A stretch of DNA of 52,673 bases, taken from NCBI GenBank assembly GCA_041686315.1, contig JAWLEC010000001.1, positions 1 to 52,673 on the forward strand. The letters are read 5' to 3'. Below are positions 39,901 through 52,673 of the stretch, one piece after another (the stretch's first letter is position 1; each line of letters opens with the position of its first letter). The stretch is from Ilumatobacteraceae bacterium (GTDB lineage: Bacteria > Actinomycetota > Acidimicrobiia > Acidimicrobiales > Ilumatobacteraceae). Under the pieces are notes generated by a model that made no database searches, had not been told where the DNA came from, and worked only from the letters and a program-made list of their open reading frames with translations. The position numbers and the translations under genes are program-made.

Positions 39901-40462
39901 GGGCGTCGGGTACCCGGCCGGTGGGGACCTGGGCGACCGTGTCGGCCTCGGTGAGCACCACCGACCGGCGAGCGCCGGCGCCGACGCCGGCATCTGCGAC
40001 GGCGGTGGTGGCGGCGGTCGCGGCAGTGGCGGCCTCGGCCGCATCGGTGAGGGTGATCTCGGCGCCGAACACGGTGGGCAGCCCCACGGCCGCGGCGGCC
40101 TCGGCGAATCGCACCACGCCGTAGAGCCCGTCGTGGTCGGTGACGGCCAACGCCTCGAGCCCCAGTCGGGCGGCCTCGGTGGCCAGTTCCTCGGGATGCG
40201 ACGCCCCGTCGAGGAACGAGAAGTTCGAGTGGCAGTGCAGCTCGGCGTAGGGCATGTGGTCGACCGGCCGTGACGGGGCCTCGTCGGGGCCGTCGGGCGC
40301 CTGGAACGGCTGGCGGCGTCGGCTCCATGCCGGCCCGTCTCCGCCGGCGTTCCACGACGGGCTCCCGGGGGCGCGCCCGTCCCGGCCTGTCCGTCCCGGC
40401 GGCTTTCCCGACAGTGTCGCTTCGAGTTCGCTCCAGGACCAGGACGGGTTGTTGAACCCCAC
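36950..40462 (-). CDS. dnaE2: error-prone DNA polymerase III alpha, DnaE2 (ImuC)
   Basis: ORF 36950..40480. The PHP domain motif is YAELHCHSNFSFLDGASHPEEL. The N-terminus from the second GTG (40462), (M)GFNNPSWSWSELEATLSGKP, parallels the mycobacterial DnaE2 N-terminus. The first GTG (40480) lies inside the SOS box. Confidence 0.9.
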   Translation of the reverse strand: MGFNNPSWSWSELEATLSGKPPGRTGRDGRAPGSPSWNAGGDGPAWSRRRQPFQAPDGPDEAPSRPVDHMPYAELHCHSNFSFLDGASHPEELATEAARLGLEALAVTDHDGLYGVVRFAEAAAAVGLPTVFGAEITLTDAAEAATAATAATTAVADAGVGAGARRSVVLTEADTVAQVPTGRVPDAHAPDPSGTHLLVLADGPDGYARLSRALSQGHLAGEKGAPRFGFHDVADQLAGHGWVLTGCRKGAVPAALVAHGPAAARRELQRLVSAFGRDRVLVELWDHGDPLDSARNDALVEIAHREGVGCVATNNVHYATPAQRRLATALAAVRSRRSLDQIDPWLPAAAGAHLRSGAEQARRFRRYPGVVERAAEIGRAAAFDLALVAPKLPPFPCPDGPDGKPLTEMQYLRRITEEGARRRYGERPTGSEDLSLRARAWRTIDHELALIEQLGFAGYFLIVWDIVEFCRRADIYCQGRGSAANSAVCYALGVTAADAVSLGLLFERFLSPERDGPPDIDVDIESDRREEVIQYVYRQYGRHHTAQVANVITYRARSAVRDMAKALGFEPGQQDAWSKQVDGWGGVAATAAQPGCSIPEPVIELAAEVEDAPRHLGIHSGGMVICDRPVIEVCPVEWARMDKRSVLQWDKDDCARTGLVKFDLLGLGMLSALHYAVDLVREHRGYEIDLATIPQDDDVYAMLCRADTVGVFQIESRAQMATLPRLKPRRFYDLVVEVALIRPGPIQGGSVHPYIRRRNGREPVTYLHPLLENSLGKTLGVPLFQEQLMQMAIDVAGFTPAESDELRQAMGSKRSAARMERLKQRLYAGMAERGITGEVADELFAKMKAFADYGFPESHSVSFAYLVYASSWIKYHEPAAFCAALLNAQPMGFWSPHTLVRDARRHGVVVRTPDLNASSAAATLEPSAESVGEVAVRLGLGSVRGIGADLAEEIEAVRAADGAYADTEDLVRRVPPLTLPQLEALATAGAFEECFGLDRREALWTVGATAQSRPGRLAGVVTGADAPRLPGMTPVEEAVADLWATGVSPDGHPTVFVRDRLTELGVLTSDQLVEPEPGSTVQVAGVVTHRQRPMTAQGVTFLNLEDETGLVNVVVSKGCWARFRTVAREAPAMLVRGRLERSEGVVNIVAEHLAPLPVPAESSVVTRNFR

Positions 40463-40472
40463 CCCTCCAGTA

Positions 40473-40488
40473 TCGAACACACGTTCGC
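40473..40488. promoter_or_regulatory. LexA (SOS) box upstream of dnaE2
   Basis: TCGAACacacGTTCGc matches the actinobacterial consensus TCGAAC-N4-GTTCGA. It lies 11 nt upstream of the preferred start. Confidence 0.7.
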
Positions 40489-40500
40489 CATCCGCAACTT

Positions 40501-40553
40501 CCGAAAAATGCCTGGTTCGTAGCGCGTGCCGCTACGAACGGGGCATTTTTCGG
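40501..40553. repeat. 53-bp palindromic element, family A copy 3
   Basis: CCGAAAAATGCCtggTTCGTAGCGCgtgccGCTACGAAcggGGCATTTTTCGG, between the NUDIX stop and the dnaE2 SOS box. Confidence 0.85.
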
Positions 40554-40564
40554 GGTTTGGCGGG

Positions 40565-41173
40565 TCAGGTGAGGCGTTCGGCGAGGGCGATGAGGGCGCC
40601 GCGGAGGCCGGGGTCGGCGATGGCGATGGCCTGGGTCCAGCCGAACCAGGCGATGTCCTGACTCTCACCCTCGGGCGGTGCGGGGTCGGCGTCGCCGCCG
40701 TCGATGAGATAGCGCAGGTCGAGATGGGTGTGGCCGCGTCCGCCCGGGTGCACGTCGACGTGGATCAGTTCCGGGACGCCGCGCGATTCGATGTCCGACG
40801 CGGCGTCCGGGTCGGCGCTCGAGGCCGCCTCCGACTCGTCGAACGAATCGAACGACACGTCGAGCCCGGTCTCCTCCGCACTTTCGCGCAGGGCCGCGTC
40901 CCACGGTGTCTCACCCGGGTCGATGTGGCCGCCGGGTTGCAGCCAGATGCCGAGCCGCTTGTGCTTCAACAGCACCACTCCACGGTGCCCGACCACGATC
41001 CCCGAACCGGTCACGTGGACCGGATCGAGGCGCTGGTCGAACGGATCCGCCAATCCGTCGAACGCCTCGAGAAAGGCCGCCACCGACCGTTCCTCGCGCT
41101 CGTCGACCGGTGCCCGCGCGGCCACGGAGGCCTGCACGTGGCGGCGGACGTCGACCGGAAGATCACCCATCAC
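40565..41173 (-). CDS. NUDIX hydrolase
   Basis: 202 aa. The Nudix box is GGHIDPGETPWDAALRESAEETGL. Confidence 0.8.
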   Translation of the reverse strand: MMGDLPVDVRRHVQASVAARAPVDEREERSVAAFLEAFDGLADPFDQRLDPVHVTGSGIVVGHRGVVLLKHKRLGIWLQPGGHIDPGETPWDAALRESAEETGLDVSFDSFDESEAASSADPDAASDIESRGVPELIHVDVHPGGRGHTHLDLRYLIDGGDADPAPPEGESQDIAWFGWTQAIAIADPGLRGALIALAERLT

Positions 41174-41342
41174 CCCTGCCTAGCAGGAGGTCCACACCCA
41201 TCGCACCGAATCACACGCGTGTCATTTCTCTTCGATTTCTCCTTGAGTTCGCAAGTGGGGTGACCGATAGCAACACCAGAACACGAACTCGGGCGACACC
41301 AGCTCGACCACACCAGTCGGCGGAACTGACGGACGGACACCC

Positions 41343-42110
41343 ATGGACTACGACACCAACATCGCACCTCGCATCCTGATCGCCGTGGACGATCCGGATC
41401 TGCGCCGGATCAGTGTGGCCGGGTTGCGGTCGGCGGGATTCAGCGTCAGCGCCCCCACCGACGGCGATGCGGCGATCATGTTGGCCGAGTCCTTCTCCCC
41501 CGACGTCCTCATCGTGTGCTCACGTCTGCGGGCCCCCGACGGTCGCCCGCTCTACGAACGACTCCGCGACTCGAGCGAGCAGTACCTCCTCTGCATCACC
41601 GACGAGGGAGCCCACCGGATCCGCGCCGCCGTACTCCACTCCGGTGCCGACGACGCCGTCTCCGTGCCGGTGTCGGCCGAGGAGCTGGCCGCCCGGTGCC
41701 ATGCACTCCTGCGCCGGCCGCGCCAGATGCAGGGTCGGGTGGATGCGGTGTTCGCCTCCACCCTGGTGCTCGGACCGCTGTCGATCGACCTCGGTCGCCG
41801 TGAGGTCCGCGTCGACGACGAGGAAGTGGCCACCACCCGGATCGAGTTCTCACTGCTCGAACAGCTGTGTCGGCGGCCGACCGAGGTGTGCACCCGCGAG
41901 GATCTCCTCGACGCCGTGTGGGGGCCGAAGTGGGTCGGCGACCACCACGTGGTCGACGTCCACCTGTCGAACCTGCGCCGCAAGCTCGACAAGGCGGCGC
42001 CCGAGCTGAAGGTGATCCACACCGTACGCGGCGTGGGTTTCCGTCTCGCCAACGACGTCACCGACCAGCTCGACATCTCCCAGCCGTTCGGCCTCGCCGC
42101 CGTCGTCTAG
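41343..42110 (+). CDS. OmpR/PhoB-family response regulator with degenerate receiver (no phospho-acceptor Asp)
   Basis: 255 aa with a receiver plus winged-helix domain (TRIEFSLLEQLC...VVDVHLSNLRRKL...IHTVRGVGFRL). The position aligned to PhoB Asp53 is Cys59 (TGC 41517-41519), and the conserved Lys is Val. Confidence 0.8.
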   Translation: MDYDTNIAPRILIAVDDPDLRRISVAGLRSAGFSVSAPTDGDAAIMLAESFSPDVLIVCSRLRAPDGRPLYERLRDSSEQYLLCITDEGAHRIRAAVLHSGADDAVSVPVSAEELAARCHALLRRPRQMQGRVDAVFASTLVLGPLSIDLGRREVRVDDEEVATTRIEFSLLEQLCRRPTEVCTREDLLDAVWGPKWVGDHHVVDVHLSNLRRKLDKAAPELKVIHTVRGVGFRLANDVTDQLDISQPFGLAAVV

Positions 42111-42148
42111 CAGGCGTCGAGGAGCGTCTCCTCCGACCCGCTCACGCC

Positions 42149-42197
42149 GAACGCGTGAACAGTATGCGGGCGCTCGGCGCACACTGTTCACGCGTTC
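42149..42197. repeat. 49-bp palindromic element, family B copy 2
   Basis: gAACGCGTGAACAGTaTGCG-ggcgctcgg-CGCACACTGTTCACGCGTTc, between convergent genes. Confidence 0.85.
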
Positions 42198-42198
42198 G

Positions 42199-43947
42199 TC
42201 AGTCGTAGCGGGCGCTGATCCACCATCGACGGTGCTCGGCGACCACGAGATAGCCGCACTGGTCGTCGGTGACGACCTGGAACCGCGCCAGGCGTCGATG
42301 CCGCTCGGGCTCCCACCACCGCTCCTCCACCGGCCAGGGGCCCGCCCACCCCACCACCGGCCGCGGCCGGCCACGACGCCACCCCGATGCGGCGTCACCC
42401 GACAGCAGGTGCAGTGTGGCCGGAGGCGCCGACACGGCGCCGCGCCCGGTCACGGTGAGCGATTCGCCGTGCTCGTCGAGCAGTTCGGCCGGAACGGGTT
42501 CGGCGAGCACCGTGGCCGGTGACGGCGACGGCAGCGAACCCGGCCACGGCCCCGCGGGCCCGCTGCCGGTGCCGGCGTGGGACACCGCCCGGTGCTCGAG
42601 GTCGACCGTGGTGGCCGGCACCCACCGGTACCGGTCGGCCGGCAGGCGGCCACCGCGCCACACCGGAACGGTCACCGCATCGTCGGAGGTGAGCGTGGTG
42701 AGCCGGGCGATGGTCCGCGCAGCCCGCCGGTCGGCGTCGGACTGCCCGCCCCACAGACCCAGCTGGACACCTTCGTCGGCACGCACCTCGTCGGGGCTGA
42801 GCCGGATCAGCGAGATCCCGCCCGTGAGTTGGTGGTCGCTGCCCGGCGGGAGCCCGATCCAGGCGTCGAGTTGCCAACGGATCCGTTCGACCATCGCCGC
42901 TGCGGTGAGCCCACCCGAGCGGTACCACGACCGTTCGGAGCGTTCCCCGTGTTCGGATTCGAGCAGCACCACCAACCGGGTGCACACCCGGCCGTCGGCC
43001 GCCAGCGTGCCGGCCAGCTCGTCGGCCAGTTGCTTGGCCACGAACACCACCGCGCTCGACTGGGCCGCAGGATCGTCGAGCACCTGATCGAGCCGTCGCT
43101 CGGGGGCCGGGTCGGTGGTGCCCGACGGGCGGACGTCGGCTCCCGACGCCAGGCGGTGCGCATGCACGCCCGCATGGCCGAAACGGCCGAGGACATCGGC
43201 GGCGTCGAGCGCCGCGAGGTGGCCGAGGCGGCGGAGGCCGAGCCGGGTGAACAGCTCGACCAGATCGGGATCGGCCTCGCCCAGGGTCTGCAACCAGCCG
43301 ATCGGCAACGGAGCGCAGAAAGCCGGCGAACCGGTGGGGTCGACCACCACCGGTTCGCTACGACGCACCGCCAACCGGGCCGCCACGCTCGATGCGAACC
43401 GCCCGTCGGCCACGCCCACACCCACGTCCACCTTCATCCCGGCATCGGCGGCACCGGCTGCATCGTCTGCAGCGCCTGCGCCGGCCACAGCGCCGGCACC
43501 GTCTGCAGTGTCTGCATCGGCTGCACCAGCGTCGCCGGCACCGGCGCTCGCGACGGCCGCCGCCGAAGCAGCAGTCGGCGCCAGCCGCTCGGCGAGGGAG
43601 CGATCGCCGCCGAAGTACCGCGAGGGGCCACGCGCCGACAGCGTGATCCAGCCGGGTTCGACGACATCGAGCCGAGGTGAGATCTCGGCGACGGCGCGTA
43701 CCACCGGTTCGAATCGGCCGGCGTCACGGTCGGGGTCGTGGTCGACGAGCCGGATGTGCGGGCAACGTCGCTGCGCCTGCCGGCGCCGCTGGCCGATCAC
43801 CACACCCTCGGCGGCGGCCGCAGGTGTGCGCGCCACCACCCGATTGGCGCGCATCACTGCGCCTGGCACGTCCGGACGCAACCCCGCGGCCACTGCCGGC
43901 CAGTCGGGGAACCACACCGTGACGATCCGCTCGGGCTGCTCGTTCAT
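42199..43947 (-). CDS. imuB: ImuB (Y-family polymerase-like mutasome subunit)
   Basis: Start at Met52 of ORF 42199..44100 (MNEQPERIVTVWFPDWP is the typical ImuB N-terminus). It lies 5 nt downstream of imuA'. Confidence 0.85.
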   Translation of the reverse strand: MNEQPERIVTVWFPDWPAVAAGLRPDVPGAVMRANRVVARTPAAAAEGVVIGQRRRQAQRRCPHIRLVDHDPDRDAGRFEPVVRAVAEISPRLDVVEPGWITLSARGPSRYFGGDRSLAERLAPTAASAAAVASAGAGDAGAADADTADGAGAVAGAGAADDAAGAADAGMKVDVGVGVADGRFASSVAARLAVRRSEPVVVDPTGSPAFCAPLPIGWLQTLGEADPDLVELFTRLGLRRLGHLAALDAADVLGRFGHAGVHAHRLASGADVRPSGTTDPAPERRLDQVLDDPAAQSSAVVFVAKQLADELAGTLAADGRVCTRLVVLLESEHGERSERSWYRSGGLTAAAMVERIRWQLDAWIGLPPGSDHQLTGGISLIRLSPDEVRADEGVQLGLWGGQSDADRRAARTIARLTTLTSDDAVTVPVWRGGRLPADRYRWVPATTVDLEHRAVSHAGTGSGPAGPWPGSLPSPSPATVLAEPVPAELLDEHGESLTVTGRGAVSAPPATLHLLSGDAASGWRRGRPRPVVGWAGPWPVEERWWEPERHRRLARFQVVTDDQCGYLVVAEHRRWWISARYD

Positions 43948-43952
43948 GTCAC

Positions 43953-44633
43953 TCAGGCGGGGACGGCGAACTCGCCGCGCCGCACACCCGGTGACCGGCG
44001 CCCGGCAGCCGACACGTGTACGGCCCGGCGGCGCAGGTGTCCGCAGCCGTCGCCGATGCCCTCCCACGGCCGGCCGTCGGCGTGGAGTTCGCCGTCGCAC
44101 GGCAGGATGCCCGGCTCACCCAGCACCACGACCACCGCCCCCTGCTGCTGGATGCGGGTGACGAGCTTGCGCACCATGGCGGAGGGCAACCCGGTCGGCA
44201 CACGCACCAGCAACACGTCGAATCCGTCGGCTGCTGCAGCGACCGCCTCGATCCACCGGCGAGGATCGCCACCGGTGTCGACGGCGACCACGCGCTCCAA
44301 CGGCACCCCGAGTTCACTGGCGGCGTCGAGTCCGAGTGTGGGGAGGTCGACCACGGCCACCCACCCCCCGGCCGCCACGGTGGGGGCGAGCAGCGAGCAG
44401 GCGAACGACGTGGCCGCCGACCCGGCGCACGACAGCACGCGTCCACGCACGAGCCCGCCGTCGGGGAACAGGTGGGCGACGGCGTCGGGGACGGGCAGGA
44501 TGCGCTCACGGGCGAGCGTGAGCGGCGCCACCCGCTCCCCCAGTGCCGCGAGCGCCTCCGAGAGACCAGGACGGGCGGGCGTGTCGGACGGATCGGACGT
44601 GGGGATCGGACCGGAGGTGAGTGCGAGGCTCAT
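43953..44633 (-). CDS. imuA: ImuA' (RecA-fold mutasome accessory protein)
   Basis: 226 aa. Its position directly upstream of imuB with an SOS box supports the call, and the sequence pattern (LFPDGGLVRGRV...GGWVAVVD) resembles mycobacterial ImuA'. Confidence 0.75.
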   Translation of the reverse strand: MSLALTSGPIPTSDPSDTPARPGLSEALAALGERVAPLTLARERILPVPDAVAHLFPDGGLVRGRVLSCAGSAATSFACSLLAPTVAAGGWVAVVDLPTLGLDAASELGVPLERVVAVDTGGDPRRWIEAVAAAADGFDVLLVRVPTGLPSAMVRKLVTRIQQQGAVVVVLGEPGILPCDGELHADGRPWEGIGDGCGHLRRRAVHVSAAGRRSPGVRRGEFAVPA

Positions 44634-44645
44634 CCCACCATGGTA

Positions 44646-44660
44646 TCGAACATGTGTTCG
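44646..44660. promoter_or_regulatory. LexA (SOS) box upstream of imuA'-imuB
   Basis: TCGAACatgtGTTCG, 13 nt upstream of the imuA' start. It shares the extended GTATCGAACA flank with the dnaE2 box. Confidence 0.7.
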
Positions 44661-44735
44661 GTACCACCGAGCGCAGAGACTTCCGGCGTCGGTCGAATTC
44701 GGGTGGCGAATCCTGCCCTGGTCGGGCGTCGCGGG

Positions 44736-45194
44736 TCAGCCCTGTTTGGCGTTCCAGCGTTCGCGGCCGGCGCGGCTGCGTTCGAGGATGTGCGCCGGGA
44801 CCCGTTTGGCGGCTTCGGAGAGCCCCGAATCGCCACCGTCGTCGCCACCACCGCCGGTGTCGACCGGCTCCTCGGGTTGGAGGTCCTCGAACGACGGGGG
44901 CGTCACACCCGGCTTCCAGTACTGGTACATGTACCGGATGATGTCGGACAGCCCCTCGGCGTCGTGGCCCTTCTCGAGGTCGACCGTGATGATGTTGGCG
45001 AACACGTGCACCGCATCGACCTGACCGGTGGCGAACAGGCGGCGGGCCAGCTCGTCGGACGGGCCATCGCCGTAGGCGTCGGCGAGCGAGTCGTAGTGCT
45101 CGTGGCCCTGGCCCGACAGCGTGCGGTTGATCTCGAAGCGGACGACACCTCGTGTCGAACTCGGCTTCTCGGTGACGGCGACCAGCTGACCCAT
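44736..45194 (-). CDS. hypothetical protein, possibly Nfu_N-like domain plus acidic/Gly tail
   Basis: 152 aa. VVRFEINRTL...DELARRLFATGQVDAVHVFANIITVDLEKG resembles the Nfu/NifU N-terminal domain pattern (weak call from memory). Confidence 0.5.
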   Translation of the reverse strand: MGQLVAVTEKPSSTRGVVRFEINRTLSGQGHEHYDSLADAYGDGPSDELARRLFATGQVDAVHVFANIITVDLEKGHDAEGLSDIIRYMYQYWKPGVTPPSFEDLQPEEPVDTGGGGDDGGDSGLSEAAKRVPAHILERSRAGRERWNAKQG

Positions 45195-45255
45195 GACGCC
45201 GCAACGCTAGCGCCCGCACACCGCTGCCGCCCAGCTCCGGCGCCCACCCAGTTCC

Positions 45256-45303
45256 GAACGCGTGATCAGTTGGCGGCGAGTGACCGCACACTGATCACGC
45301 GTT
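45256..45303. repeat. 48-bp palindromic element, family B copy 3 (compensated variant)
   Basis: gAACGCGTGAtCAGTtgGCG-gcgagtgac-CGCACACTGaTCACGCGTT. The A-to-T change in the left arm is matched by T-to-A in the right arm. Confidence 0.85.
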
Positions 45304-45305
45304 GG

Positions 45306-46697
45306 TCAGATGAGGGCGTCGGCGAGCACGGCGGGGAACTCGTCGGGGGTGGTGGACAGCACCGTGGCACCCAGTTCGGCGAGTGCGGCGGCGTGGTCGT
45401 GGTCGTGGCTGGGCGTGCCCTCGTCGCTGAGCGCCAGCAGCACCACCACCGTGACACCGCCGGCCACCAGCTCGGCCACCCGTCGGCGCATGAGGTCGGC
45501 GTTGCCGCCCTCGAAGAGGTCGCTCACCAGGAACAGCACGCTCTCGCGCGGCCGTTCGATCAGCGACTGGCAGTAGCCGAGTGCCGCTGCGATGTCGGTG
45601 CCTCCGCCGAGTTGCACCCCGAACAGCACCTCGACCGGATCGTGGAGATACGCCGTCAGGTCGGTCACCGAGGTGTCGAATGCCACGAACGACGTCCGCA
45701 AGGCCGGCAACTGGGCGAGCACGCCCCCGAACAGCGAGGCGTACACGACGCTGTCGGCCATCGACCCCGACTGGTCGACGGCGATCACCACGTCACGGGC
45801 CAGGCTGCGCTGGCGCCGGCCATGGCCCACCAGCCGCTCGGGGATCACGGTGCGGTGCTCGGGGATCCAGTGCCGGAGGTTGGCGGTGATCGTGGTGGGC
45901 CAGTCGATGTCGCCGGGACGGGGCCGGCGGGTGCGCGCCGACCGGGCCAGCGCCCCGCGCACGGCCTGGCGGGTGTGGTCGGTGAGCCGGGCCTCGAGGT
46001 CGGCGAGCACCCTGGCGATCACCTGGCGGGCGGTGGCCCGGGTCTCGTCGGGAAGATGCCGGTTGAGTTCCACCAGCAGGGTGACCAGGTGCACGTCGGG
46101 TTCCACCGCCTGCAGCAGCTCGGGTTCGAGCAGCAACTGACGGAGGTCGAGCCGGTCGACGGCGTCGCGCTGGAGGATCTGCACCATCGGTGTCGGGAAG
46201 TAGCGGCGGATGTCGCCGAGCCAGCGCACCACCCCGGGTCGCGACCTCCCGAGCCCACCGGATCGGCTGCCCGCCCCACGGCGCACCGACTCACGGTCGT
46301 AGAGCGCGCCCAGCGCCGCATCGATCCGCACGTCGTCGCCGGTCAGCCTCCCCCCGATGCGGTCGCCGCCACCGGGTCGTGAATCGTTGCGCCGCCCGGC
46401 ACCCCCACCGTCGCCCGGACCGCCGTCACCCTCGGATCGTCCGCTTCCGTCGGCACCATCACCGGCGCCATCACCAGCGCCGTCACCGCCGGCAGCGCCA
46501 CCTTCACCGGCATCCTCTCCTCCGGCAGGGCCGTCACCACCGCCCGCACCCGGCTCGGCGCCTGTCGCGTCGTTCCCGGCGCCGCTGTCGAGTGGGTCGT
46601 CGGTGTCGAGTTCGGCCGCCGCACCCAGCACCAGGCGCCACCGGCGCAGCCGTTCACCCTCCGACACGCGCAGCGCCGTCGGTTCCACCGGGCTCAT
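45306..46697 (-). CDS. VWA-domain protein with Gly/Asp/Ala-rich N-terminal region
   Basis: 463 aa. The MIDAS residues are DQSGSM, GGGTD and SDLFEGG. The start overlaps the upstream stop (ATGA). Confidence 0.85.
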   Translation of the reverse strand: MSPVEPTALRVSEGERLRRWRLVLGAAAELDTDDPLDSGAGNDATGAEPGAGGGDGPAGGEDAGEGGAAGGDGAGDGAGDGADGSGRSEGDGGPGDGGGAGRRNDSRPGGGDRIGGRLTGDDVRIDAALGALYDRESVRRGAGSRSGGLGRSRPGVVRWLGDIRRYFPTPMVQILQRDAVDRLDLRQLLLEPELLQAVEPDVHLVTLLVELNRHLPDETRATARQVIARVLADLEARLTDHTRQAVRGALARSARTRRPRPGDIDWPTTITANLRHWIPEHRTVIPERLVGHGRRQRSLARDVVIAVDQSGSMADSVVYASLFGGVLAQLPALRTSFVAFDTSVTDLTAYLHDPVEVLFGVQLGGGTDIAAALGYCQSLIERPRESVLFLVSDLFEGGNADLMRRRVAELVAGGVTVVVLLALSDEGTPSHDHDHAAALAELGATVLSTTPDEFPAVLADALI

Positions 46698-48967
46698 CGC
46701 ACCTCCACTCGCCGGGTCGACGGGCGTCTCGCCGGATCAGCCGCCGCCGTGCGGCCCGGATCAGCCGCCACCTCGGGCAGGCCCAGCATCGCCCGGACCG
46801 TTGCCAGCGCCTGCGCCGCCCGGACGGGGTCCACCTCCGGCCCGAAACCCTCCCGGCGCGGCACACCCCGACCGGCCAACAGCGACATCAGCTGCCGCCG
46901 CTCGGCCGGCTCGAATGCCCCGAACGTGCGTCGCAGGAGCACCAGCACGGCGTCGAAGTCGTCGGTGGTGAGGCCGGCGAGCCAGCCGTCGAACACGTCG
47001 AGCAGCTCCGCGTCGTGCACCAGCACGGTGCCCGAGCCGGCGACGAAGCCCTCGACGAACGCCGCTCCATGGCCGGGCGGGGTGCCGCCCGACAGGGCGC
47101 GACCGACCCGCCCGCGCACACGAGATGCCGGCCACTGACCGGCATCGTGCAGCAGCCGCGTGGCGCGACCCTCCACCAGGCCGTGGCCGCCGTGTTCGGC
47201 GAGACGGCCGAGCACCGCCGGGTACCCGCGGCGCCGTTCGGGATGGTCGAGCGTGGCGAGTGCCCCCTGGAAGCCGGTGAGCCGCTCCACCATCGCCTCG
47301 GCGGCGTCGTCGTCGAACGAGGCGCACGCCGCCGGCAGTGCCGCCAGGACGCGGGCCACCAGGCCGTCGAACACGGCGCGCAACGACGGCACGTCGGTGC
47401 CGCGCACGTCGCCGTACCGCAGCGCGTGGGCCAGGGGGACGGCGGCGTCGAGCAGGTGGCCCACGTCGGTGTCGACGGCGGCACGGTCGCCGAGACGGCG
47501 GATGCACGGTTCGACGGCGTCGGGCAGTGCGGCGAGCAGCGCCGTGTCGAGCACGGCCACCAGCTCGGTGAGGCCGGCCGCACCGTCGGCACGCTCGACG
47601 AGCCGGGCGGTGGCCGCAGCGACGACGGTGGTGCCGTACCCGGCGCGCTCGACGATGCGCACCGACAGTTCGGGCTCCCAGCGCAGGCTCCAGGTCTCCC
47701 GGAACGTGCCCGACGACCCGCGGCCTTCGGTGAGGCTGCCCCAGCCGATGCCCAACGCCACCAGGCGGTGGAGGAGGTGCGACTTGCGAAGCCCGGTGGG
47801 TGTGCGGAGATCGACCTCGAGCGTGACCGCTCCGGCGGTGGGACGCAGGCGCGCCGACCGCTGCGCGGCCGCCACGTCGCGGGCGAGGGGCACCTGCGGC
47901 GCCGACGACGGCACCCTGCCCAGTGCGTCGCCCACCACCAGCTCGTGGCGGACAAGATCGAGGCTGCCCATCACGGCGTCGGCGGCGTCGAGCACCTCCG
48001 CCAGTCCGGCACGTGGGCGGCCCCTCATCGCCGCCAGCGAGTCGGCGAGGCGGGTGCCGGCGATCAGGTGGTCGGGCGACGCCGCCCCGCCGTTGTCGCG
48101 CACGACCTGTGCCGCGTGCACGAAGAAGCGTGAGACGCCGTCGGGGCCGGGATGGGCGAACACGTGCCGGTACCAGCCGGGGCTGTCGACGCCCGCGCCG
48201 TACCCGGACGCAGCGGTGAGCCGACGGTGCGTCCAGGGCACCCAGGCCACCGACACCTTCATCTTCGGGAGCTTGCGCAGCAGCGCGTTGTCGGCGGCGG
48301 CGGTGGTGGCACCGACGTCGAGCGCAGGGACGTGCCACGCACCGCAGACCACGGCGACGGTGCCGGCGCCGTCCTTCACGGCGGCGCGGATCGCCCGTCG
48401 CATGTGTGCTTCCCGGCGACGCTCGCCGAGGGTGGGCACGAACCCCTCGCGGGCGGCGGCCATGGCGTCGGCGACGGCGTCGAAGGCGGGTGCCCCGTCG
48501 CCGCGGTGCTCGATGACGTCCTCCCACCACCGCTCGGGGTCGGGATCGCCCGCTGCCGCTGCCAGCTCACGGATCGGGTCGGGGGGCGACGCCTCCGCGA
48601 GCAGCTCGGCAGCGCCGTCGCTGCCATCCCGGCCGCCATCGACGTGCGGGGCGGCGAGCGTGTGGGCGAGCGGGAGGTCGATGGCCCGCACCGGCACGTC
48701 GTGTGCGTTGGCCCAGGCAACGGCCTGCCATTCGGGACTGAAGTCGGCGAACGGAGCGAACGCCGCCCGGGCGGGCTCGGCCACCACCCAGCCGAGCAGC
48801 GACACCGGCGGCACGAGATCGGGGTCACCGATCCAGCCGAGCGCCGACTGCACGTCGGCGGGCACCTCCACCAGCACCACGTCGGGTCGCAGTTCGTCGA
48901 GCGATCGGAGCACCGAACGCGCCGACCCGGGCCCGTGGTGACGGATCCCGAGCAGATGGGTCGTCAT
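46694..48967 (-). CDS. large uncharacterised protein (DUF5682-like)
   Basis: Start at Met21 of ORF 46694..49027, giving 757 aa. The N-terminus is LLGIRHHGPGSARSVLRSLDELRPDVVLVEVP. The family name is from memory and should be confirmed by HMM. Confidence 0.7.
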   Translation of the reverse strand: MTTHLLGIRHHGPGSARSVLRSLDELRPDVVLVEVPADVQSALGWIGDPDLVPPVSLLGWVVAEPARAAFAPFADFSPEWQAVAWANAHDVPVRAIDLPLAHTLAAPHVDGGRDGSDGAAELLAEASPPDPIRELAAAAGDPDPERWWEDVIEHRGDGAPAFDAVADAMAAAREGFVPTLGERRREAHMRRAIRAAVKDGAGTVAVVCGAWHVPALDVGATTAAADNALLRKLPKMKVSVAWVPWTHRRLTAASGYGAGVDSPGWYRHVFAHPGPDGVSRFFVHAAQVVRDNGGAASPDHLIAGTRLADSLAAMRGRPRAGLAEVLDAADAVMGSLDLVRHELVVGDALGRVPSSAPQVPLARDVAAAQRSARLRPTAGAVTLEVDLRTPTGLRKSHLLHRLVALGIGWGSLTEGRGSSGTFRETWSLRWEPELSVRIVERAGYGTTVVAAATARLVERADGAAGLTELVAVLDTALLAALPDAVEPCIRRLGDRAAVDTDVGHLLDAAVPLAHALRYGDVRGTDVPSLRAVFDGLVARVLAALPAACASFDDDAAEAMVERLTGFQGALATLDHPERRRGYPAVLGRLAEHGGHGLVEGRATRLLHDAGQWPASRVRGRVGRALSGGTPPGHGAAFVEGFVAGSGTVLVHDAELLDVFDGWLAGLTTDDFDAVLVLLRRTFGAFEPAERRQLMSLLAGRGVPRREGFGPEVDPVRAAQALATVRAMLGLPEVAADPGRTAAADPARRPSTRRVEVR

Positions 48968-48977
48968 GGCGCGTCCA

Positions 48978-50111
48978 TCACGAGTCGAGGACGCGGCAGG
49001 CCTCGTAGAAGTCGCTCCATCCCGCACGGTCGCGGGCCACCGTCTCGAGGTACTCCCGCCAGGCGACGGCGTCGTGCACCGGATCGCTCACCACGGCGCC
49101 GACGATGCCCGCGGCGACGTCGCCGGCCGCCAGCTCGCCGTCACCGAAGTGTGCTGCGAGCGCCAGGCCGTTGGTGATCACCGAGATCGCCTCGGCCGTG
49201 GAGAGCGTGCCGGTGGGCACCTTGAGGCTGCGCTGGTCGTCGGCAGTGACACCCGAGCGCAGCTCGCGGAACACCGTGACGACCCGGCGGATCTCGTCGG
49301 CGGCGGCAGGCACCTCGGGCAACGACAGCGCCACGCCGAGTTCGGCGACGCGGCGGCTGACGATGTCGATCTCCTCGTCGATGGTGGCCGGCAGCGGCAG
49401 CACGACGGTGTTGAAGCGGCGGCGGAGCGCACTCGACAGGTCGTTCACGCCACGGTCGCGGTCGTTGGCGGTGGCGATCACGTTGAAGCCGCGGATCGCC
49501 GCGATCTCGGTGTCGAGTTCGGGTACCGGCAGCACCTTCTCCGACAGCACGGTGACGAGTACGTCCTGCACCTCGGGCGGCATCCGGGTGAGCTCCTCCA
49601 CGCGCACGAGGGCGCCGCGCTGCATCCCCCGGTACACGGGGCCTGGGACGAGCGCCTCGATGCTCGGCCCCTCGGCGAGGAGGCGGGCGTAGTTCCACCC
49701 GTACCGCAGCGTCTCCTCGGTGGTGCCGGCGGTGCCCTGCACGAGCAGCGTGGAGTCGCCGCTGATGGCGGCGGCGAGGTGCTCGCTCACCCAGGTCTTG
49801 GCGGTGCCCGGCACGCCCAGCAGCAGCAGGGCGCGGTCGGTGGCGAGGGTGGCCACGGCGATCTCCACCAGCCGTTGCCGGCCCACGTACTTCGGCACGA
49901 TCACGGTGCCGTCGCTCAGCTCACCGCCGAGCAGGTACCGCACGACCGCCCACGGTGACAGCTTCCAGCCGGGCGGCCGCTCGCGGTCGTCGAGGGCGTC
50001 GAGCGCCGCCAGCTCGTGGGCGTACTGGTGCTCGGCGTGTGGTCGCAGGACGTCGCCGGGCACCGGCGGCAGGACGGTCATCGCCATGACGTTACCGAGG
50101 GCGTGTCGCAC
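48978..50111 (-). CDS. AAA+ ATPase, MoxR/AAA_5-like
   Basis: 377 aa. Walker A is GVPGTAKT, the Walker B-like motif is ALVRVEELTR and the sensor-1 region is FNVIATANDRD. The start is GTG 50111, with alternatives ATG 50087 and 50081. Confidence 0.85.
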   Translation of the reverse strand: MRHALGNVMAMTVLPPVPGDVLRPHAEHQYAHELAALDALDDRERPPGWKLSPWAVVRYLLGGELSDGTVIVPKYVGRQRLVEIAVATLATDRALLLLGVPGTAKTWVSEHLAAAISGDSTLLVQGTAGTTEETLRYGWNYARLLAEGPSIEALVPGPVYRGMQRGALVRVEELTRMPPEVQDVLVTVLSEKVLPVPELDTEIAAIRGFNVIATANDRDRGVNDLSSALRRRFNTVVLPLPATIDEEIDIVSRRVAELGVALSLPEVPAAADEIRRVVTVFRELRSGVTADDQRSLKVPTGTLSTAEAISVITNGLALAAHFGDGELAAGDVAAGIVGAVVSDPVHDAVAWREYLETVARDRAGWSDFYEACRVLDS

Positions 50112-50112
50112 C

Positions 50113-50154
50113 CACCGATGAGCGACGGGACAGACGTGTCGGCCGCTCGCTCAT
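50113..50154 (+). repeat. 42-bp direct repeat, copy 1 (contains internal inverted repeat GATGAGCGA...TCGCTCATC)
   Basis: caccgatgagcgacgggacagacgtgtcggccgctcgctcat. It matches the copy 62 bp downstream at 39 of 42 positions. Confidence 0.85.
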
Positions 50155-50174
50155 CGCATGCCCACACAGGCCCA

Positions 50175-50216
50175 CACCGATGAGCGACGGGACAGACGTG
50201 CTGGCCGTTCGCTCAT
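50175..50216 (+). repeat. 42-bp direct repeat, copy 2
   Basis: caccgatgagcgacgggacagacgtgctggccgttcgctcat. It contains the ATG of ORF 50180..50377. Confidence 0.85.
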
Positions 50217-50377
50217 GGCAGGGTGGATCGAGCACCTGGTCGGTCGCACTCGCCGAGCCAGTCTCACTTCCGGGCCCGGATCAGGTGATCGTGGTGCACT
50301 TCGACAGCCACGAGCTGGACTTCGACTACATGGTGTCCCGCGCCACGCCGGTGCTGGACAGCATCGAGTTCGTGTGA
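50180..50377 (+). CDS. small hypothetical protein (65 aa)
   Basis: From the ORF track only (MSDGTDVLAVRSWQGG...). Its first 7 codons are duplicated in repeat copy 1. No family was recognised. Confidence 0.3.
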   Translation: MSDGTDVLAVRSWQGGSSTWSVALAEPVSLPGPDQVIVVHFDSHELDFDYMVSRATPVLDSIEFV

Positions 50378-50446
50378 CCCCGAGAGCGAGCGCCACCCGG
50401 CCCTCCGACGACCATTCCGTAGCATGCCTAGCTAGCATCCCGTGCT

Positions 50447-50656
50447 ATGGCCACGACCCGGACGACGTTCAGTCTCGATGAGGCGCTCGCCGAACAGGCT
50501 CGCAGGCTCGGCGTCAACGTCTCGGCCGCTGCCCGTGAGGGAGTTGCTGCCGCGGTACGCGCAGCCATGGCTCGAAGCGACCGGGAGGCCTACGTCGACA
50601 GGCCCGAGTCTCCCGACGACGTCTGGGTCGAAGCCGAGGCGTGGGGTGCCGAGTGA
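50447..50656 (+). CDS. type II antitoxin, ribbon-helix-helix (MazE/CopG-like)
   Basis: 69 aa. TTFSLDEALAEQARRLGVNVSAAAREGV is an RHH pattern. The stop overlaps the toxin start (GTGA). Confidence 0.75.
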   Translation: MATTRTTFSLDEALAEQARRLGVNVSAAAREGVAAAVRAAMARSDREAYVDRPESPDDVWVEAEAWGAE

Positions 50657-50964
50657 ACCGCGGCGAGGTCTACTGGCTGGCAGAGGTCGGACGCAAACGC
50701 CGCCCCGTCCTGGTGCTGACACGTACGGAGGTGCTCGACGTCCGATTTCTCGTGACCGTTGCCGAGATCACCGCATCGGCGCGCGGACTCGCAGCGGAAG
50801 TCGACTTCGACCACGTCTCGGTGGGGCTCGAGCGAGGATCCGTCGTGAACTGCGACAGCCTGCACACGGTGGCCCAGTCCACCCTGACCGCACACGTCGG
50901 TGACGTCGACGACGACACCATGCGACGCGTGTGCTCCGCAATCGGCTACGCGCTCGGATGCTGA
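50653..50964 (+). CDS. mazF: MazF/PemK-family endoribonuclease toxin
   Basis: GTG 50653. RGEVYWL......RPVLVLTR.....VTVAEITAS.RGL..EV......SVVNCDSLHTV parallels mycobacterial MazF toxins. Confidence 0.85.
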   Translation: MNRGEVYWLAEVGRKRRPVLVLTRTEVLDVRFLVTVAEITASARGLAAEVDFDHVSVGLERGSVVNCDSLHTVAQSTLTAHVGDVDDDTMRRVCSAIGYALGC

Positions 50965-51021
50965 AGCGTCGCCCCGGCATCAGGACGGCCAATCGGTATC
51001 ACTCAGTTCGCGGTTCGGGTC

Positions 51022-51453
51022 TCACGCGAGCGTGGCTGGAGCGACGGCGAGGCCGACCGCAGCGGCGCCGGCGTGCAGGCGCTTGTCCCACACTGCGACG
51101 GTGAGATCCGTCGGGCCGAGTGCGAGCGCACTTGCGAGATGAACCGCGTCCGCCCCGCGGAGCTGATGTGTTGCTGCGAGCGACCCCGCAGCTCGCTCGA
51201 CGTCGGCAGACAACTCGACCGGGCGCATCGATGCCCAGAACTGCTCCCAGTCGGACACAGCCGCCGACGCCTCGGGCTCGGTGAGATCGTGGTTGCGGAC
51301 GGCGGCGGCGAGGGCCGCGCAGACCTCGGGATGGGCCAGCCGACTCGACAGCGCCACATCGCACGCGTTCCACAACGCTGCGGCGATGTCTGACCCGACC
51401 TCGTCGAGCACGAGCTTGACGAGCGCGCTCGAATCGAAATAGACGAGGGCCAC
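51022..51453 (-). CDS. vapC: PIN-domain toxin VapC
   Basis: 143 aa. The N-terminal VYFDSSALVKL and the later ADAVHLASAL provide PIN acidic residues. Confidence 0.85.
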   Translation of the reverse strand: MALVYFDSSALVKLVLDEVGSDIAAALWNACDVALSSRLAHPEVCAALAAAVRNHDLTEPEASAAVSDWEQFWASMRPVELSADVERAAGSLAATHQLRGADAVHLASALALGPTDLTVAVWDKRLHAGAAAVGLAVAPATLA

Positions 51454-51455
51454 GT

Positions 51456-51719
51456 TCAGCGACGCTGCTCGCTGACGATCTCTGCAACCGGTCGTTTCGG
51501 CGTCGGCCGTCGCCGGTCACCGGCGACCGGCCGGGTCGAGCGCGTCGGCCGACTGATGACGCCCTGGGCGGTGAGCCGGTCGATGGCCGATGTCGAGTCG
51601 AGGGCGACGATTCGGGCGACCGGAGTCCCTCGATCGGTGATCACGATCTCGTTGCCCTCGCGTGCTGCGTCGATCCACCGGCCGAGGTGAGCTCTGAGTT
51701 CGGTGACTGCGACGTCCAT
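51456..51719 (-). CDS. Phd/YefM-family antitoxin
   Basis: 87-aa tail of ORF 51456..52400 from MDVAVTELRAHLGRWIDAAREGNEIVITDRGTPVARIV. There are 2 nt between its stop and the vapC start. Confidence 0.8.
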   Translation of the reverse strand: MDVAVTELRAHLGRWIDAAREGNEIVITDRGTPVARIVALDSTSAIDRLTAQGVISRPTRSTRPVAGDRRRPTPKRPVAEIVSEQRR

Positions 51720-51728
51720 TCCCCCAAG

Positions 51729-51758
51729 TGTACATGACGCCACGGCCCGATATGTACA
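51729..51758. promoter_or_regulatory. candidate operator: two TGTACA palindromes 24 bp apart upstream of phd-vapC
   Basis: gTGTACAtgacgccacggcccgataTGTACAga lies 10-39 nt upstream of the antitoxin start, in a locally A/T-richer stretch. Confidence 0.4.
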
Positions 51759-51829
51759 GATTGCCGCCCGCTGTCCCGATTCGCGTCGAGCGCACCGACA
51801 CTCCGAGATGACCGAACTGCGTGACGAAT

Positions 51830-52673
51830 TCAGGCCCAACCGAGTTCGTCGAGCATCCGCCGGCGGGTGGTGGCGAGGTCGGCGAGCACGCTGGCGAGGC
51901 CGTAGCCGGGGGAATCGGCGGGTACGGCGTCGAGTGCCTCGGCGATCGCCGGCAGGCCGTCGGGTCGGCAGCGGGCGATCAGGTTCACCAGCACGCCGCG
52001 GTGGGCATGGACGAGCTGCCCGGCATCGATGGCTCGGGCCAGGGCGGGGCCCGTCTCGGTGCCGGGAGCCGTCAGCATCGGCTGGAGGTCGGCCGGGATC
52101 GCCAGCTCGGGCAGCTCGCCGACGTGTTCGAGTGCCGCAGCGAGGTCGGCGGGCCGGGCGTGGGGACCACGCGGCGCCAGCGCGGGGACGTGCCCGGTCA
52201 ACCACTCGGCGAGTGGCCCGCACGCAAGTTCGGTACGCGCCCGGCGGATCGGATCGCTGCGGTGGCGAGCGAGCAACGGGGGGACCAGTTCGGGGGCGAC
52301 GCGCCAACCGTTGGCGAGCAGGGTCAGCACCCACTCGTCCTCGAGCACCGGCCACGACGCCACCAGGTGGTGCCAACGGTCGACGGCGGCGGGCACGCAC
52401 ACCGCACGACCGTCGGCGGGCGGCTGGGCCAGGCGCGGTCGTGGTGGCGCCGGCATCACGCCGGCACGCCGGACGGCGACGGTGGCGGCGACCTGGGCGA
52501 GCATCCGTTCCGACGGCGTCGGCCGCAGCGTGTCGTCGACCAGATCCGCGACGGGATCGGGCGGTCGCGGCGGGTCACGTCGGTCGGTGCCGAGCATGGC
52601 GGTGGCGACCAGCGCCTCCCAGTGGTCGGCGACGGTGCCCGACGGAGTCGCCCCCTCCCGCCGGTCGCCGGTC
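51830..52673 (-). CDS. 3' part of a large uncharacterised gene (DUF5691-like), running off the right edge
   Basis: ORF 51830..52597, and the same frame stays open to 52673 (own translation ...TGDRREGATPSGTVADHWEALVATAMLGTDRR...). The family assignment is from memory of the SWIM/DUF5691/AAA/DUF5682/VWA neighbourhood. Confidence 0.5.
   Translation of the reverse strand, partial: TGDRREGATPSGTVADHWEALVATAMLGTDRRDPPRPPDPVADLVDDTLRPTPSERMLAQVAATVAVRRAGVMPAPPRPRLAQPPADGRAVCVPAAVDRWHHLVASWPVLEDEWVLTLLANGWRVAPELVPPLLARHRSDPIRRARTELACGPLAEWLTGHVPALAPRGPHARPADLAAALEHVGELPELAIPADLQPMLTAPGTETGPALARAIDAGQLVHAHRGVLVNLIARCRPDGLPAIAEALDAVPADSPGYGLASVLADLATTRRRMLDELGWA

Follow-up and report, generated by a model that had tools for sequence, protein, structure and literature searches.

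In the described pairs of a MoxR-class ATPase and a von Willebrand factor A (VWA) protein, the VWA partner captures a peptide and the ATPase carries out the ATP-driven remodelling (PMC7159879). YehL is one of the seven MoxR subfamilies in the classification of Snider and Houry, and one without a known function (cited in PMC3893208); in Escherichia coli, both yehL and yehM are repressed by H-NS (PMC3686432). Our literature search found no functional study of yehL, yehM, yehP or yehQ and no mention of the Pfam families DUF5682 or DUF5691. This agrees with an earlier note, made by a model from the letters of the DNA, which knew of no experimental function for the arrangement described here. That DNA, hereafter the window, is a stretch of 52,673 nucleotides with a G+C content of about 70% from an Ilumatobacteraceae bacterium (contig JAWLEC010000001.1). 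The note had picked out in it three minus-strand genes encoding a MoxR-like ATPase, a 757-aa protein without a nameable catalytic motif and a VWA protein. We conclude from sequence comparison that this trio is almost certainly the same conserved module as E. coli yehL-yehM-yehP, the catalytic core of a YehL-type MoxR system. The link between the actinobacterial trio and the E. coli genes is new here; the system itself is already catalogued, and uncharacterised.

The trio and its counterpart in Escherichia coli

The three open reading frames (ORFs) are read in the order ATPase, DUF5682, VWA:

48978 to 50081, minus strand: AAA+ ATPase, assigned below to the YehL subfamily; 367 aa from the likely ATG at 50081; Pfam AAA_5
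46694 to 48967, minus strand: DUF5682 protein, YehM counterpart; 757 aa; Pfam DUF5682 over the full length
45306 to 46697, minus strand: CoxE-type VWA protein, YehP counterpart; 463 aa; Pfam VWA_CoxE

Inspection of the sequence bore out the tight packing that had been described. The ATPase gene stops at 48978 and is separated by a 10-nt gap from the ATG (48967) of the DUF5682 gene, whose stop overlaps the start of the VWA gene by 4 nt (ATGA). The longest ATPase ORF begins at a GTG at 50111. However, the true start is likely to be the ATG at 50081, because similarity to the related loci L083 and L084 ends just upstream of 50113 and the gene called in locus L082 is also 367 aa long. This start corrects the earlier note, and a 1.7-kb insert at 50112-51829, described further below, adds to it. 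Promoter and terminator consensus scans of 44800-52673 gave no match, consistent with a high-GC actinobacterium.

All three genes are under purifying selection. In a comparison with L082, whose DNA is 95% identical, the ratio of nonsynonymous to synonymous substitution rates (dN/dS) was 0.05 for the ATPase gene, 0.13 for the DUF5682 gene and 0.11 for the VWA gene. Because of these ratios, and because the catalytic motifs are 96-100% conserved over related loci, chance ORFs are excluded and the trio consists of genuine genes.

The ATPase matched AAA_5 at 2.4e-36 (125.2 bits against a cut-off of 22) and carries every motif quoted for it in the earlier note: the Walker A sequence GVPGTAKT (K97), the Walker B sequence VRVEE (E164/E165) within VRVEELTR, and the sensor-1 residue N208 in NVIATAND, followed by the arginines R223/R224. 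The Walker A Lys, the Walker B Glu-Glu, the sensor-1 Asn and the Arg pair are 97-100% conserved among 73 homologues. The best sequence matches in the PDB were the AAA domains of midasin (3e-12), and NorQ (3.6e-7) was the nearest small ATPase of solved structure. The protein is 42% identical to E. coli YehL over its full length (368 columns), and since genes similar to yehM and yehP lie directly downstream of it as well, we would assign it to the YehL subfamily of MoxR.

The VWA protein, matched by VWA_CoxE (PF05762) at 1.3e-50 (172 bits against a cut-off of 26.4), likewise has the complete metal-ion-dependent adhesion site (MIDAS) that had been read from its sequence. Its C-terminal domain contains D308, S310, S312, T367 and D393 (in DQSGS, GGGTD and SDLFEGG), and these residues are 96-100% conserved among 24 homologues, in all of which the N-terminal motif RWRLxLG (R-W-R-x-x-L-G) is kept (100%). 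It is 40% identical to E. coli YehP. The Gly/Asp/Ala-rich low-complexity region, also noticed earlier, is a linker of ~85 aa (residues ~30-120, about 46338-46610) inserted after the RWRLxLG motif and absent from E. coli YehP (378 aa). At two loci, L011 and L041, the linker gave spurious profile extensions. The FSscan paper (PMC2790909) treats E. coli yehP at some length, as a gene predicted to be a hot spot of +1 ribosomal frameshifting.

Pfam places the middle protein in DUF5682 (PF18934), a family of unknown function, at 1.2e-231 (771 bits, profile positions 2-727 of 727), as the earlier note had suggested, and the N-terminal motifs quoted for it, LLGIRHHGPGSA...RPDVVLVEVP, are present. It is 28% identical to E. 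coli YehM (E 3e-35). In E. coli K-12, Pfam identifies yehL as AAA_5, yehM (759 aa) as DUF5682 (2.4e-98), yehP as VWA_CoxE and yehQ as a SWIM gene, and the order AAA_5, DUF5682, VWA_CoxE is identical in K-12 and in the window.

The E. coli genes are nearly universal in their species: yehLMPQ is single-copy and chromosomal in 5353 of 5426 complete genomes (98.7%), with at least 80% of the query covered in 5210. Many of the E. coli YehM clusters are shortened (420-690 aa) at > 90% identity, and yehH, a neighbour of the yeh operon, is a pseudogene in K-12; the yeh locus, though nearly universal, may tend to be inactivated in certain lineages. The WGR/DUF4132 'MolR' genes yehF and yehI, which lie immediately upstream of yehLMPQ (L001:3475-10912), were considered as partners and rejected, as they are absent from all 80 related loci analysed here (E < 1e-5).

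These 80 loci were the best of at least 594 relatives of the DUF5682 protein obtained in a scan of one genome per species. They span Actinomycetota, Cyanobacteria, Bacteroidota, Clostridia, Planctomycetota, Gemmatimonadota, Myxococcota and Proteobacteria; the DUF5682 family as a whole has 3961 representatives at 50% clustering. The trio thus co-occurs in other genomes, and its order is constant: the ATPase, DUF5682 and VWA genes are close-packed on one strand in 64 of the 69 loci with enough flank, or in 66 of 69 if two coordinate artefacts are discounted, with L032, L042 and L075 as the real exceptions. At clean low-GC loci, the two genes upstream of the trio encode a SWIM protein of ~440 aa and a DUF5691 protein of ~500 aa by Pfam. 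Using profiles built from these loci, we found SWIM and DUF5691 at 65 of 66 related loci. In 44 of these they run in the direction of the trio and in 21 they are divergent from it, the latter mainly in Streptomyces and Kitasatospora. The system therefore falls into two modules: the trio, which is invariant, and SWIM(-DUF5691), a looser pair that keeps its internal gene order while its layout relative to the trio may be co-directional, divergent or as in E. coli. The neighbourhood of SWIM, DUF5691, AAA, DUF5682 and VWA genes that the earlier note had described as actinobacterial is thus real but not specifically actinobacterial, as it extends over at least eight phyla, including E. coli.

Among the cyanobacterial loci, L027 and L032 have a gap of 1.1-2.4 kb between the ATPase and DUF5682 genes, L075 has no ATPase gene upstream, and no VWA gene was found downstream at L032 and L031. 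L042:10001-12205 is an orphan DUF5682 gene without an ATPase, VWA, SWIM or DUF5691 neighbour; an acyltransferase gene (DAGAT/Acyltransferase) lies directly upstream of it.

The DUF5682 protein and the proposed machine

We modelled the full-length DUF5682 protein with AlphaFold2 from a 51-sequence alignment. The model, with a predicted local distance difference test (pLDDT) score of 81 and a predicted template-modelling (pTM) score of 0.76, has an N-terminal alpha/beta region (residues 1-~260), a mixed middle (~270-430) and C-terminal helical repeats (~430-700). A fold search with it gave weak TPR, HEAT and PPR matches only (E > 0.01), driven by the C-terminal half. Because the helical repeats dominated this search, the N-domain was modelled alone (pLDDT 76, pTM 0.80). 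Its best Foldseek match was a Tetrahymena complex IV accessory subunit (7w5z_E; probability 0.96, E 0.013, template-modelling (TM) score 0.36), and Tetrahymena complex IV has been reported to include a TraB-family protein (PMC10060162). The same list holds Bcr135 (3b55/2rad, E 1.5) and ChaN (2g5g, E 6.3), both structures of the TIKI superfamily (PMC6254334). When 25 diverse DUF5682 N-domains were scanned individually, sub-threshold matches to Tiki-clan Pfam families recurred, at best 0.02 for TraB_PrgY_gumN, 0.07 for Cofac_haem_bdg and 0.039 for Erythro_esteras. PDB sequence searches, run with the single DUF5682 sequence and with an N-domain profile, gave no meaningful match.

The residues R9, H10 (H11), E34, E79, D97, E153, R185, E186, C208, G209 and H212 of the N-domain are invariant, and they are kept between clades that share only ~25% identity. 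Their order agrees with that of the motifs in YbaP, a TraB-family protein of E. coli: a GxxH motif (H10, at the end of strand 1), ~25 residues to a Glu (E34, after strand 2), an R[EN] motif (R185-E186), and ~24 residues to a second GxxH motif (H212), with similar spacing. The TIKI catalytic set consists of two His, two Glu and a conserved basic residue (PMC6254334), and H10, H212, E34 and R185 are all invariant in DUF5682.

Several observations weigh against taking the N-domain as a TIKI-type enzyme, or the system as a whole as one well-defined machine. E34 is the only clearly equivalent Glu, the other candidates being E79 and E186. All matches of the N-domain to Tiki-clan profiles fell below the gathering scores, so that none is significant. 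The Foldseek support is weak, with E-values > 0.01 and TM-scores of 0.30-0.36, and we could not confirm 7w5z_E as the TraB-family subunit, since a YbaP search against the PDB gave no relative. In an hhalign comparison of the N-domain profile with the single E. coli YbaP sequence, only the second GxxH motif was aligned. Some proteins of the TIKI fold, such as ChaN and PMT, are not enzymes. Finally, DUF5691 is not detectable in E. coli, and what its SWIM protein has in common with the actinobacterial type is the zinc-finger motif alone, which leaves the accessory module loosely defined. Overall, the evidence gives moderate support to the DUF5682 N-domain being a divergent TIKI/TraB-type domain that would retain catalytic-type residues and lie below formal family thresholds. 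The resemblance to TraB/ChaN-type modules that the earlier note had seen at the N-terminus thus holds for the weak fold similarity, the sub-threshold Pfam matches and the agreement of motifs; it does not extend to a match above family thresholds. Fusion proteins of DUF5682 with VWA and of AAA with DUF5682 were not used as evidence, as they form single-member clusters and are possible frameshift or assembly artefacts of overlapping or adjacent genes.

We favour the reading, at a probability of about 0.5, that the trio encodes a remodelling motor of the MoxR-VWA type, which is coupled with a TIKI-like hydrolase or scaffold, and that SWIM-DUF5691 forms a module separable from it. In such a machine, the AAA_5 ATPase (YehL) would form the ring motor and the CoxE-type VWA protein (YehP) would be the adaptor, its MIDAS capturing an acidic residue or a peptide of the client. 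DUF5682, translationally coupled to the ATPase and the VWA protein, would be the third subunit, with its C-terminal helical half as a scaffold. Its N-domain could be a hydrolase, either metal-dependent or of a His/Glu type, which would cleave or trim the client after remodelling or would itself be switched on by the motor. The SWIM-DUF5691 module, which may be co-directional with the trio, divergent from it or split from it by insertions, would most likely select the client or sense a signal. Whereas the identity of the trio is near certain, this mechanism is tentative and rather less likely than not; complex formation, the hydrolase activity and the role of SWIM and DUF5691 are steps that we infer. 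It is conceivable, and on balance doubtful, that YehL-YehM-YehP represents an unrecognised class of AAA+-gated hydrolase, in which a MoxR ring and a MIDAS adaptor feed or unmask a client for a TIKI-type peptidase or esterase in DUF5682 under SWIM control. Such a class would be conserved in organisms as far apart as E. coli and Acidimicrobiia, with no relationship to Lon, Clp, FtsH or the proteasome.

An unlikely alternative, though the most probable of the three considered, is a chaperone for cofactor or metal insertion in the manner of CoxD-CoxE-CoxF, NorQ-NorD, CbbQ-CbbO or CobS-CobT-CobN, in which a ChaN-like DUF5682 N-domain holds a metal or haem and the MoxR-VWA pair delivers it to a client encoded elsewhere. 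The membership of the VWA protein in the CoxE Pfam family and the standing of NorQ as the closest small solved ATPase both fit this reading, as do the presence of Cofac_haem_bdg (the ChaN family) among the sub-threshold matches and of ChaN in the fold list. A metal site could be built from the invariant His/His/Cys/Glu set, the genes are core in E. coli and have housekeeping-type flanks, and the combination of AAA, VWA and a large third subunit mirrors the CobS/T/N and BchI/D/H chelatases. However, no client enzyme is conserved beside the operon. When we surveyed two genes on each side of 35 diverse loci, we counted 161 Pfam families in 140 flanking genes, none of them in more than 7; the flanks are a heterogeneous, housekeeping-type mix without a sixth conserved partner. 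Nor do client genes (coxMSL or equivalent) adjoin the system at this locus, which is flanked downstream by an ImuA'-ImuB-DnaE2-type cassette with a response regulator gene and a NUDIX gene, and upstream by a LipA/LplA gene. Cofactor handling is not known for the SWIM and DUF5691 families, which provide the only partners that are conserved, and the catalytic-type His/Glu/Arg set, being kept in full, is easier to reconcile with an enzyme than with a carrier.

We consider it improbable that the locus serves in NTP-dependent conflict or in defence against phages, as a MoxR-vWA 'ternary' system in which SWIM/DUF5691 would be the sensor and DUF5682 the effector, perhaps a protease by which the infected cell is killed or arrested. 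In several predicted conflict systems the switch is a MoxR-vWA pair (PMC7159879), and one pathway of this type, Esr, was recently shown to sense epibionts in Actinomycetota (PMC13622651). The ATPase has a weak match to the bpMoxR Pfam family (24.6 bits, below the cut-off of 27), yehL and yehM are silenced by H-NS in E. coli (PMC3686432), the spread across phyla is patchy, and toxin-antitoxin, HNH and other cargo inserts at the junction of the two modules. Yet PADLOC returned no match for the DUF5682, VWA or DUF5691 proteins and a single weak IetA match (E 0.0076) for the ATPase, and neither SWIM nor YehL is mentioned in Kaur et al. 2020 (PMC7159879). Unlike variable defence islands, yehLMPQ is core in E. 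coli, with the prevalence given above. Of 72,556 plasmids, 27 carry DUF5682, most of them megaplasmids or chromids; the one phage record with it is doubtful. The flanks are of the housekeeping type with sporadic matches to defence models only, and in the proteins neither a toxic effector domain nor a polymorphic C-terminal region can be recognised. An NCBIfam search of the window proteins gave nothing useful. A typical mobile defence island is therefore unlikely and a defence role is not favoured; the conflict-system framing of the earlier note found no support in distribution or context.

The upstream module, its inserted cargo and the flanks

Upstream of the trio, the window holds the following features:

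51830 to 52673, minus strand: short-form DUF5691 gene, partial at the window edge; Pfam DUF5691, 2.4e-18
51456 to 51719, minus strand: Phd/YefM antitoxin; Pfam PhdYeFM_antitox, 4.7e-11
51022 to 51453, minus strand: VapC PIN toxin; Pfam PIN, 4.8e-11
50656 to 50964, plus strand: PemK/MazF toxin; Pfam PemK_toxin, 4.5e-12
50447 to 50656, plus strand: CcdA-like antitoxin; Pfam CcdA, 6.7e-7
50180 to 50377, plus strand: 65-aa ORF without a Pfam match, starting inside the second 51-nt repeat
50108 to 50158 and 50170 to 50220: two 51-nt direct repeats, 88% alike and 62 nt apart, at the inner edge of the insert

The gene at the window edge matched DUF5691 (PF18944), as the earlier note had anticipated, scoring 67 bits where the cut-off is 27; of the 491 profile positions, only 2-148 are covered. 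We followed it beyond the window in contig L087, which is 97% identical to window 52637-49912, has the same insert and extends upstream of the window end. There the DUF5691 gene encodes 282 aa, with its start codon ~5 nt past the window end, and overlaps by 4 nt a 446-aa SWIM gene (PF04434, 2.1e-6; 27.6 bits against a cut-off of 19.6), so that the SWIM gene that was to be looked for on a longer contig lies just past the window end. Truncation of DUF5691 by the insertion was considered and rejected: the gene in L087 is intact at 282 aa, and the Acidimicrobiia relatives are all ~255-282 aa long and end at the same residue. The short DUF5691 is thus a clade-wide form of Acidimicrobiia.

The 1.7-kb insert (50112-51829) separates DUF5691 from the ATPase gene. 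Its two type II toxin-antitoxin pairs, placed back to back, are cargo and not part of the machine. The whole insert is shared with the 97%-identical contigs L087 and L088, and the CcdA and PemK/MazF genes were also called in L082, L087 and L088. The 51-nt repeat is unique in the window, where none is expected by chance; the first copy abuts the ATPase start, and each copy holds an imperfect palindrome (ATGAGCGACGG...CCGyTCGCTCAT). The repeat could serve as an operator, or it could be the scar of an insertion or the product of a duplication.

Other loci differ at the same point. L083 and L084, 95% identical to the window across the trio, diverge from it upstream of 50113, at the repeat boundary. 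In both (L083:1-137 and L084:1-137) the end of another gene (...DQPFDWLAGRLPADGRA, then a stop) lies directly upstream of the ATPase gene in place of the toxin-antitoxin insert. L083 and L087 come from one sample, so both variants of the junction co-occur. At L009 and L015, DUF5691 abuts the ATPase gene without an insert, and in other Ilumatobacteraceae the junction holds genes for a GNAT acetyltransferase and an M20 peptidase (L012:5270-8694) or an HNH-like ORF (L003:7200-8732). Because L009/L015, L012, L003 and L083/L084 each differ there, the junction between DUF5691 and the ATPase gene is a permissive, strain-variable site, and the comparison suggests a recurrent insertion hot spot.

It is highly improbable that the insert, by uncoupling the trio from SWIM-DUF5691, and the limited DUF5691 match, read as a shortening, mark a disabled or decaying system in this genome, since the short form with its shared end residue is common to the whole Acidimicrobiia clade and is not a truncation, all ORFs are intact with conserved motifs, the dN/dS values of 0.05-0.13 were obtained against a strain bearing the same insert, and the two modules are naturally divergent transcription units in Streptomyces, so that they can do without co-transcription.

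Downstream of the trio and on the same strand, a 152-aa ORF (44736-45194) has a weak Nfu_N match. It is followed by an error-prone polymerase cassette with an ImuA'-like gene (43953-44633; MT3502_N in L082), an ImuB-like, DinB-related gene (42199-44100) and a DnaE2-type gene (36950-40480), among which a response regulator gene (41343-42110, plus strand) and the NUDIX gene are interspersed. The gene arrangement of window 36950-45194 is not kept beside YehLMP-type systems in other lineages. In many Streptomyces loci (e.g., L037:15226-17308 and L038:15485-17569), a conserved gene pair for proteins of ~392 and ~294 aa follows the VWA gene at a distance of 1.5-2 kb; it may reflect no more than synteny within the genus. 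A few flanking genes, which may or may not be this pair, match the PADLOC models mad2, mad3 and mad8.

Comparison with known systems

YehL is a recognised MoxR subfamily for which our literature search found no experimental function, although its operon is present in K-12 and in nearly every sequenced E. coli. Tying the actinobacterial locus to yehLMPQ makes the hypotheses above testable in the best genetic system, and it narrows them, as distribution and context argue against a typical defence island. The invariant His/Glu/Arg/Cys site in the putative TIKI/TraB-like domain of YehM is a concrete prediction that can be mutated. If the hydrolase idea is true, a new type would join the ATP-driven processing machines; if not, mutants of this site would still help to separate a cofactor-delivery role from a conflict role. 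The instance in the window is an ordinary member of the family, and its local peculiarity is the toxin-antitoxin cargo between the two modules.

Similar to the trio, CoxD-CoxE-CoxF (metal-cluster maturation of CO dehydrogenase), NorQ-NorD and CbbQ-CbbO pair a MoxR-class ATPase with a VWA/MIDAS protein. In contrast to those systems, no CO dehydrogenase, nitric oxide reductase or Rubisco client genes are nearby or conserved at the loci studied here, and the third subunit is DUF5682 rather than CoxF; SWIM and DUF5691 partners, in turn, are absent from CoxDEF, NorQD and CbbQO. Midasin/Rea1 and the CobS-CobT-CobN and BchI-BchD-BchH chelatases also combine an AAA_5-type motor with a MIDAS domain. 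Midasin differs in being one giant eukaryotic polypeptide that acts on pre-ribosomes. The chelatases add a large third, substrate-binding subunit; by all searches run, CobN and BchH are unrelated to DUF5682.

The likeness to the TIKI superfamily (Tiki, TraB/PrgY/GumN, RRSP, erythromycin esterases/Bcr135 and ChaN) concerns the DUF5682 N-domain only. They would share an alpha/beta fold with a parallel sheet, as judged from the predicted model and weak fold scores, as well as a pair of GxxH-type motifs, a Glu that follows the second strand and an R-E/N motif ahead of the second GxxH. Unlike TIKI members, the DUF5682 N-domain has an extra invariant Cys (C208) and a His-His doublet, and it is fused to ~500 residues of helical scaffold. 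We know of no TIKI member embedded in a MoxR-VWA operon with such a scaffold fusion.

With the MoxR-vWA ternary conflict systems (VMAP, iSTAND and beta-propeller types; PMC7159879) and the Esr pathway (PMC13622651), the system shares a MoxR protein, a vWA protein and a large third component, along with a proposed switch-like role. It differs from the ternary conflict systems in that the five proteins contain no VMAP, iSTAND or beta-propeller component and no arrays of effector domains. The closest relative is E. coli yehLMPQ, which has the same tight coupling, similarity over the full length of the proteins and an associated SWIM protein. In E. coli, however, the SWIM gene yehQ (614 aa) follows the VWA gene and DUF5691 is not detectable, whereas here SWIM and a short DUF5691 precede the trio, two toxin-antitoxin pairs lie between the modules, and the VWA protein has its extra linker of ~85 aa.

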